Assembly (NCBI RefSeq): GCF_003334385.1 | Contig: NZ_QOWN01000075.1 | Reading direction: 5' to 3' (one strand) | From: Escherichia coli | GTDB lineage: Bacteria; Pseudomonadota; Gammaproteobacteria; Enterobacterales; Enterobacteriaceae | DNA: 6,926 nucleotides | In this document: positions 3,854 to 4,170 of the stretch, piece after piece | Layout of the letters: each line of letters starts with the position of its first letter | How positions within the stretch are numbered: position 1 is the first letter of the stretch | Made by a program: the position numbers and the translations under genes | The notes under the pieces: generated by a model | Told to the model about the DNA's origin: nothing | Databases searched by the model: none | Seen by the model: the letters and a program-made list of their open reading frames with translations, nothing else

Positions 3854-3861
3854 GCATTAAC
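3854..3861. repeat. Target-site duplication, right copy (GCATTAAC) of the IS66-family element
   Basis: Identical to 1103-1110 and directly abuts the right IS terminus. Confidence 0.8.
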
Positions 3862-3890
3862 AATAACATGATATTCATCACGGAGTGACT

Positions 3891-4091
3891 ATGTTACAGA
3901 TAGTCGGCGCGCTGATCCTGCTGATCGCAGGATTTGCCATTCTTCGCCTTTTGTTCAGAGCATTAATCAGCACGGCTTCTGCGCTGGCAGGGCTCATATT
4001 GCTGTGTCTGTTCGGCCCGGCCTTACTGGCTGGCTATATCACCGAACGCATAACCCGGTTGTTCCATATTCGCTGGCTGGCGTATTTCTGA
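3891..4091 (+). CDS. Hypothetical small membrane protein (66 aa, two predicted transmembrane helices)
   Basis: ATG 3891 is preceded by GGAG at 3882-3885 (5-nt spacer). The translation has two long hydrophobic stretches and coding-like codon usage. No family recognised. The ORF track start at 3885 is a GTG two codons upstream. Confidence 0.45.
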   Translation: MLQIVGALILLIAGFAILRLLFRALISTASALAGLILLCLFGPALLAGYITERITRLFHIRWLAYF

Positions 4092-4170
4092 CGATTGCCG
4101 GAATGATCATCAGCTTCATGTGGGGACTTGATGGTAAACATATCGCGCTGGTGCAAAATGGCATCTGAAT

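Follow-up and report, generated by a model that had tools for sequence, protein, structure and literature searches.

A 66-codon reading frame between two insertion sequences in Escherichia coli is a frameshifted 5' fragment of yeeR

The closest described relatives of the locus considered here belong to the agn43-yeeR-irmA operon of Escherichia coli, which is transcribed as a unit from a start site ahead of agn43 and whose first gene, agn43, is phase-variable by an epigenetic mechanism (PMC4807369). In UPEC CFT073, an insertion sequence (IS) between agn43a and yeeR abolishes downstream expression (PMC4807369), and IS disruptions of the agn43-yeeR-irmA region are frequent (PMC9431211). The K-12 locus has the gene order agn43, yeeR (510 aa), yeeS, yeeT, cbeA, cbtA, and K-12 yeeR is itself truncated (PMC6480617). 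Where it is intact, yeeR, a membrane-protein gene, encodes ∼838 aa and carries a YeeR_C (PF27347) domain, an assignment taken from a precomputed table, and metagenome contigs show the order agn43, yeeR with YeeR_C, irmA.

The DNA analysed is a 6,926-nucleotide stretch of E. coli sequence (the window), in which the features delimited below all lie on the plus strand. BLAST of the whole window against the K-12 locus returned three collinear blocks (1–1110, 3854–4151 and 6792–6926), which are separated by an IS66-family element (1111–3853) and an IS21-family element (4152–6789). The first block is 98.9% identical to the K-12 agn43 3' end and intergenic region; it comprises the 3' end of agn43 (flu, antigen 43 autotransporter) at 1–1019, delimited by the K-12 alignment, where the longest open reading frame (ORF) is 45–1019 and the gene runs off the left edge, followed by the left part of the agn43-yeeR intergenic region at 1020–1110. 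The second block represents the yeeR leader and codons 1–88, and the third, 99.3% identical to K-12, represents yeeR from codon 89; the gene then runs off the window edge and its C-terminal domain lies beyond it. With the IS66 element and one copy of its target duplication removed, the window is collinear with K-12 agn43-yeeR and yeeR lies directly downstream of agn43, as it does in K-12, with the same leader and Shine-Dalgarno sequence. Unlike K-12 yeeR, the window retains only codons 1–88 ahead of the IS21 element, with the frame broken at codon 65. The UPEC CFT073 agn43a-yeeR-irmA copy resembles the window in having an IS between agn43 and yeeR, whereas the window adds a second IS inside yeeR and a frameshift attributed to repeat slippage.

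Between the two elements, the ORF at 3891–4091 is the sole non-IS coding sequence. It begins at an ATG (3891–3893) preceded by GGAG (3882–3885), a Shine-Dalgarno sequence within the native yeeR leader (3854–3890), which is identical to the sequence upstream of yeeR in K-12; it ends at TGA 4089–4091, just after a T3 run (TTT, 4085–4087), and a second frame ends at TGA 4166–4168. On re-reading the sequence, the positions given earlier for the ORF, the T3 run and both TGA codons hold; an ORF listing also gives 3885–4091, starting at a GTG two codons ahead of the ATG, and an overlapping frame at 4004–4168. The earlier note had taken this ORF for a small membrane-protein gene, but it consists of the first 64 codons of yeeR: the 66-aa product is identical to YeeR residues 1–64 (64/64) and then continues with two out-of-frame residues, Y and F, before the stop. 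The suspicion that the native gene was longer was justified, given a yeeR of 510 aa in K-12 and ∼838 aa where intact, and the shifted frame proposed as its continuation is real, since translation of 4082–4150 gives VFLTIAGMIISFMWGLDGKHIAL, which equals K-12 YeeR residues 66–88 exactly (23/23). Positions 4082–4151 therefore hold codons 66–88 in the native frame and the first base of codon 89. Beyond the IS21 element, 6793–6924 translates to EAHTFDSVKFILTT... (EAHTFDSVKF...), equal to YeeR 89–132 (44/44). At the DNA level the fragment is 98.7% identical to K-12 yeeR with a 4-base gap counted, and an uninterrupted ORF reaching the YeeR_C domain is absent here, owing to the frameshift at codon 65 and the IS21 element in codon 89. 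When 3854–4168 was compared by megablast with 5,426 complete E. coli genomes, 2,209 of them gave matches, at 2,814 places and with 90–99% identity, and in K-12 strains the feature beneath the match is yeeR; given this distribution, the stretch is a conserved gene segment and not a chance reading frame. In ∼2,100 complete genomes the gene reads through the position equivalent to 4091, contrary to what would be expected if homologues all terminated there.

An independent, functional gene for a small inner-membrane protein, lodged between two IS elements, would account for the good Shine-Dalgarno sequence and ATG, for the two strongly hydrophobic helices of the product and for the fact that gene callers predict the same 66-aa protein on five other contigs. 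A hydropathy scan of intact YeeR places hydrophobic helices at approximately residues 1–29, 20–52, 57–82, 95–113 and 137–157, so that the 66-aa fragment amounts to two of these helices and ends where the third begins; only its last two residues are not those of the YeeR N-terminus. On the other contigs a separate 761-aa call, starting 27 nt further on, covers the remainder of yeeR, as expected of a split gene, and the 66-aa stop occurs in no complete genome and represents only a rare yeeR frameshift allele, with no NCBIfam family and no promoter-like site upstream. The independent-gene reading is already largely refuted by these observations and is regarded as extremely improbable. A scan of NCBIfam with the 66-aa and a hypothetical 92-aa product gave nothing meaningful, the one match being sub-threshold (16 bits against a cut-off of 35). 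Searches with longer forms were similarly unproductive: Pfam returned for K-12 YeeR a SUR7 match alone, which was insignificant, a reconstructed 838-aa YeeR matched nothing in NCBIfam or among PDB sequences, and Rfam placed no family anywhere in the window. As a separate observation, the C-terminal half of intact YeeR (L003:10228-12513) weakly matched PDC-M09B, a candidate defence family, in PADLOC (E = 5e-6 and 4e-5).

The IS66-family element is ISEc49-like and carries tnpA (1198–1527), tnpB (∼1514–1893) and tnpC (1936–3491). Its left junction reads ...CTG GCATTAAC|GTGTCG... and its right junction ...AGCTTAC|GCATTAAC AATAAC...; the octamer GCATTAAC is single in the uninterrupted K-12 sequence (...CTGGCATTAACAATAAC...) and flanks both junctions here (1103–1110 and 3854–3861), which sets the element at 1111–3853 with an 8-bp target duplication. 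Both this duplication and the tnpA-tnpB-tnpC set, the latter as annotated in relatives, are those of the IS66 family. Native sequence upstream of the ATG amounts to 37 nt (3854–3890), of which the first 8 nt are the target duplication, and the 29 bp quoted in the earlier note is thus correct with the duplication excluded. The sequence further upstream, thought there to have been displaced, is not lost at all: this is a simple insertion, with agn43 and the rest of the intergenic region present at 1–1110. Strain NMBU-W12E19 has a copy at this very site, under the label 'IS66-like element ISEc49 family transposase', and the window's element shares 99.6% identity with it; in relatives, tnpB is annotated as a pseudogene. 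In the window tnpC is broken by the absence of 10 bp (TCCCCTGGCG) after position 2651, leaving a defective copy; this deletion is peculiar to the window in comparison with G1/2 and NMBU-W12E19. The G1/2 copy lacks 83 bp that are present in the window at 2188–2270, and tnpC of NMBU-W12E19 is intact; the ISEc49-like copy is decaying independently among related strains.

Because the IS66 element was inserted between agn43 and yeeR, the latter would be cut off from the operon promoter upstream of agn43, and such an uncoupling of the yeeR fragment is proposed by analogy with CFT073. A crude scan of the plus strand from 3450 to 4350 revealed no promoter-like or terminator-like site and thus lends no support to an outward promoter in the IS66 end. 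Since no promoter-like site lies between tnpC and the ORF, any expression would most likely come from read-through out of the IS. With a good Shine-Dalgarno sequence and no terminator predicted after tnpC, translation of a peptide is conceivable.

The IS21-family element (4152–6789) is ISSso4-like, with istA at 4384–5918 and istB at 5935–6690. Its ends, TGCAAAATGG...GGAATACGCA, were set by comparing three independent insertions and are identical at four sites. Assignment to the IS21 family follows from the istA-istB genes, the TG...CA termini and multiple terminal repeats, namely five direct repeats of ∼23 bp (ATCGATCNNNGTTTGGCAT) at 4169–4280 in the left end, with inverted counterparts at 6696–6777. 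Multiple terminal repeats of this kind are typical of IS21-family elements and are presumably transposase binding sites. The copy is 100% identical to that at the same site in G1/2 and 99.2–99.6% identical to ISSso4-family copies elsewhere. Compared with intact copies, istA lacks one base after 4740, which splits it into ORFs 4273–4878 and 4725–5918, again as in G1/2, and the element is probably non-autonomous. Its insertion point splits codon 89 of yeeR behind the first base. The earlier proposal that an IS21-family element sits at or in the 3' end of the native gene was right as to the gene and wrong as to the end, since the site falls in the 5' tenth of yeeR, which resumes at 6793. Nor does the TGA at 4166–4168 lie at the edge of the left IS21 end, as had been supposed: that codon and the preceding VQNGI codons are inside the IS and form no part of native yeeR.

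The left flank of the IS21 element is CGCTGG (4146–4151), whereas the right side (6790–6926) has a degenerate duplication of only GCGG (6790–6793), 2 nt short, leading into yeeR codon 89 at 6793; two other ISSso4 insertions have clean 6-bp duplications (GTATCC and ATAAAG). The imperfect right copy indicates that the insertion was not perfectly canonical or was altered afterwards, and its presence in G1/2 as well indicates an oddity of long standing, as opposed to an error in the window. Ten complete genomes, namely G1/2, NMBU-W12E19 and eight others, share the IS21 site and the yeeR/IS21 junction with the window, and both of those checked for it (G1/2 and NMBU-W12E19) also carry the IS66 copy at the window's site. 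The IS21-junction genomes have three repeat units and a 93-aa product, unlike the window with two units and 66 aa; the IS21-truncated 93-aa product is found on 454 contigs, and the PGAP label of the fragment in G1/2-type genomes is 'hypothetical protein, incomplete, missing C-terminus'. At position 3977 the window has the majority allele, T, where G1/2 and NMBU-W12E19 have G; identical match scores suggest G at this position in the other eight IS21-junction genomes. At 6849 the window carries a C that is private to it.

The frameshift itself was located by comparison of the window with K-12 and with G1/2. Relative to both, four bases are missing in ...CGC TGGC TGGC AGGC GTA..., and they can be placed anywhere between 4078|4079 and 4081|4082. 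The majority allele of this tract is (TGGC)2AGGC, at yeeR codons 62–65; the window has (TGGC)2 at 4074–4081, one unit below the normal three as judged from other genomes. Loss of a TGGC unit changes ...RWLAGVFLTIAG... to ...RWLAYF and a stop, and this shift of frame brings translation to an end at 4089–4091 and not 15 nt into the IS21 element. The single missing T suggested previously would predict ...WLAYFLTIAG..., but every intact homologue has ...WLAGVFLTIAG...; as the 4-base loss lies 4–10 nt upstream of the T3 run, a '+1 T' correction does not address the cause of the frameshift. A perfect (TGGC)3 tract, which differs from the majority allele by a synonymous A-to-T change, occurs in three of the IS21-junction genomes (NMBU-W12E19, UPEC-245U and SW070917), and the window allele is one slipped unit away from it.

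None of the ten complete genomes with the yeeR/IS21 junction carries the 4-base deletion. Among the ∼2,660 places that a junction-specific query matched in complete genomes, not one has the (TGGC)2 allele, and an exact scan for the (TGGC)2 junction found none in 100,044 species-representative genomes and none in JGI metagenome contigs. It might be suspected from this absence, and from the error-prone nature of short GC-rich repeats in some technologies, that the missing bases are a sequencing or assembly artefact and that the true sequence is the 93-aa IS21-truncated form of G1/2-like genomes. The exact 66-aa product is encoded on five other contigs, however, and all five carry (TGGC)2; these are independent assemblies, from different samples, made with different assemblers and on different SNP backgrounds. 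No IS is present in four of them; the fifth carries the IS21 element and lacks the IS66 element. The tract also occurs with further unit numbers, and all changes are of whole 4-base units, as real slippage predicts. An artefact is considered improbable, and with or without it the locus would remain an IS-truncated pseudogene.

The SNP haplotypes flanking (TGGC)2 on the five contigs differ from that of the window and from one another, from which it follows that the allele is homoplastic. Recurrent slippage would be the simplest account of such an allele, with slipped-strand mispairing as the likely mechanism of unit loss. Alternatively, gene conversion or recombination could have spread a (TGGC)2 allele of single origin among paralogous or orthologous yeeR copies. 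An E. coli genome may hold as many as five copies of the region, and the 290-bp 5' segment of yeeR is almost invariant, so that a short conversion tract would be invisible; at 3977 the majority T of the window, as against G in G1/2 and NMBU-W12E19, would fit a patch of foreign sequence. Taken together, this T, the C at 6849 and the repeat contraction could reflect either a short gene-conversion patch or an early lineage split. Against a single origin, private SNPs of the L005 contig bracket the deletion, 83 nt upstream and 37 nt downstream, and would confine any transferred tract to <120 bp, and the several other unit-number alleles at the same site are not explicable by conversion of one allele. 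Spread from a single event is thus thought unlikely, and recurrent slippage is preferred.

The TGGC tract is a tandem repeat within coding sequence, with a unit length indivisible by three, and the searchable literature yielded no description of it in yeeR. Unit numbers of 2, 3, 4, 5, 7, 9, 11, 12, 13, 14 and 18 were observed, with three units, as (TGGC)2AGGC, in ∼2,100 complete-genome copies. In ten O26:H11-type complete genomes the matches fall in two pieces spanning 77–121 nt, in steps of four; those fetched contain (TGGC)6 to (TGGC)17 followed by AGGC, (TGGC)3 plus AGGC also occurs, and for strain PV0838 Tandem Repeats Finder counts 18.5 copies. Exact matches to (TGGC)3AGGC occur in at least 22 further records. 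The products expected from other unit numbers were predicted and then looked up exactly, the tracts being confirmed in contig DNA: a product ending ...HIRWQAYF, from (TGGC)1AGGC, was found on 5 contigs, ...HIRWLAGRRISDDCRNDHQLHVGT, from (TGGC)3AGGC, on 2 contigs and ...HIRWLAGWQAYF, from (TGGC)4AGGC, on 1 contig, and the agn43-yeeR-irmA loci around these three alleles are otherwise intact. The twelve O26:H11-type copies fetched from complete genomes, each with at least four units (L012–L023; e.g., L012:3511-3552 and L014:218-291), all lie downstream of an IS600 insertion in yeeR, and these copies are already pseudogenes because IS600 disrupts their yeeR. As judged from these alleles, the tract appears to be a genuine slippage hot spot.

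In the tetranucleotide contingency loci of Haemophilus and Neisseria (e.g., CAAT in lic1A), functional alleles contain long tracts and switching is frequent. The yeeR tract resembles them in its 4-base unit within the 5' coding region, in its capacity to shift the frame and in its polymorphic unit number, and it could be supposed that slippage switches YeeR reversibly and that the window captures the OFF state of a programmed switch. Such an interpretation draws on a frame-shifting repeat early in the coding sequence, on the existence of alleles with 2, 3, 4, 5 and 7–18 units, on the recurrence of the 2-unit allele on unrelated haplotypes and on the fact that the operon's first gene is already phase-variable, albeit epigenetically (PMC4807369). 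Unlike the Haemophilus and Neisseria loci, functional yeeR combines just two perfect units with a single imperfect one and shows almost no variation: the same interrupted (TGGC)2AGGC is found in ∼2,100 complete-genome copies and is too short for high switching rates. Long tracts among the fetched complete-genome copies are found only where the gene is already dead, in contrast to those loci, and the inactivation of all twelve by IS600 fits neutral drift. Intact loci seldom carry off-frame alleles (1–5 contigs each), and in the window yeeR is dead whatever the frame. A programmed switch is accordingly rated very improbable; because short interrupted copies number ∼2,100, off-frame alleles are rare and the fetched long tracts occur only in dead genes, the pattern fits a mutational hot spot with neutral microsatellite growth.

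The ORF at 3891–4091 is thus very probably the 5' end of a yeeR gene broken by IS elements and frameshifted, an ordinary decaying pseudogene with no separate gene within it. Three independent lesions produced the fragment: insertion of the ISEc49-like IS66 element into the agn43-yeeR gap, 37 nt upstream of the start codon; insertion of the ISSso4-like IS21 element after the first base of codon 89, which severed ∼750 codons that resume beyond the IS; and loss of one tetranucleotide unit at codons 62–65, converting (TGGC)3 or (TGGC)2AGGC to (TGGC)2. At most, read-through transcription from the IS66 genes would yield an incidental two-helix peptide of 66 aa, and the fragment is presumed to have no function.

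The appropriate annotation of the 66-aa ORF is a fragment of a yeeR pseudogene, in place of a hypothetical small membrane protein. The finding is unlikely to change understanding of the operon, yeeR being a known gene in a region already documented to decay through IS insertion; the apparent TGGC slippage hot spot is a small and mildly new observation. Were the tract a slippage switch after all, YeeR, and perhaps downstream genes via polarity or coupling, would gain a layer of genetic ON/OFF control, and the tract would join a very small number of simple-sequence contingency loci in E. coli. In O26:H11-type strains the tract is highly length-variable (4 to 18 units) within one clonal group and may offer a typing marker. 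The locus represents a further case of the published IS-mediated decay of the agn43-yeeR-irmA region, and recurrent slippage at the tract would explain how identical yeeR frameshift alleles come to be found on unrelated backgrounds.
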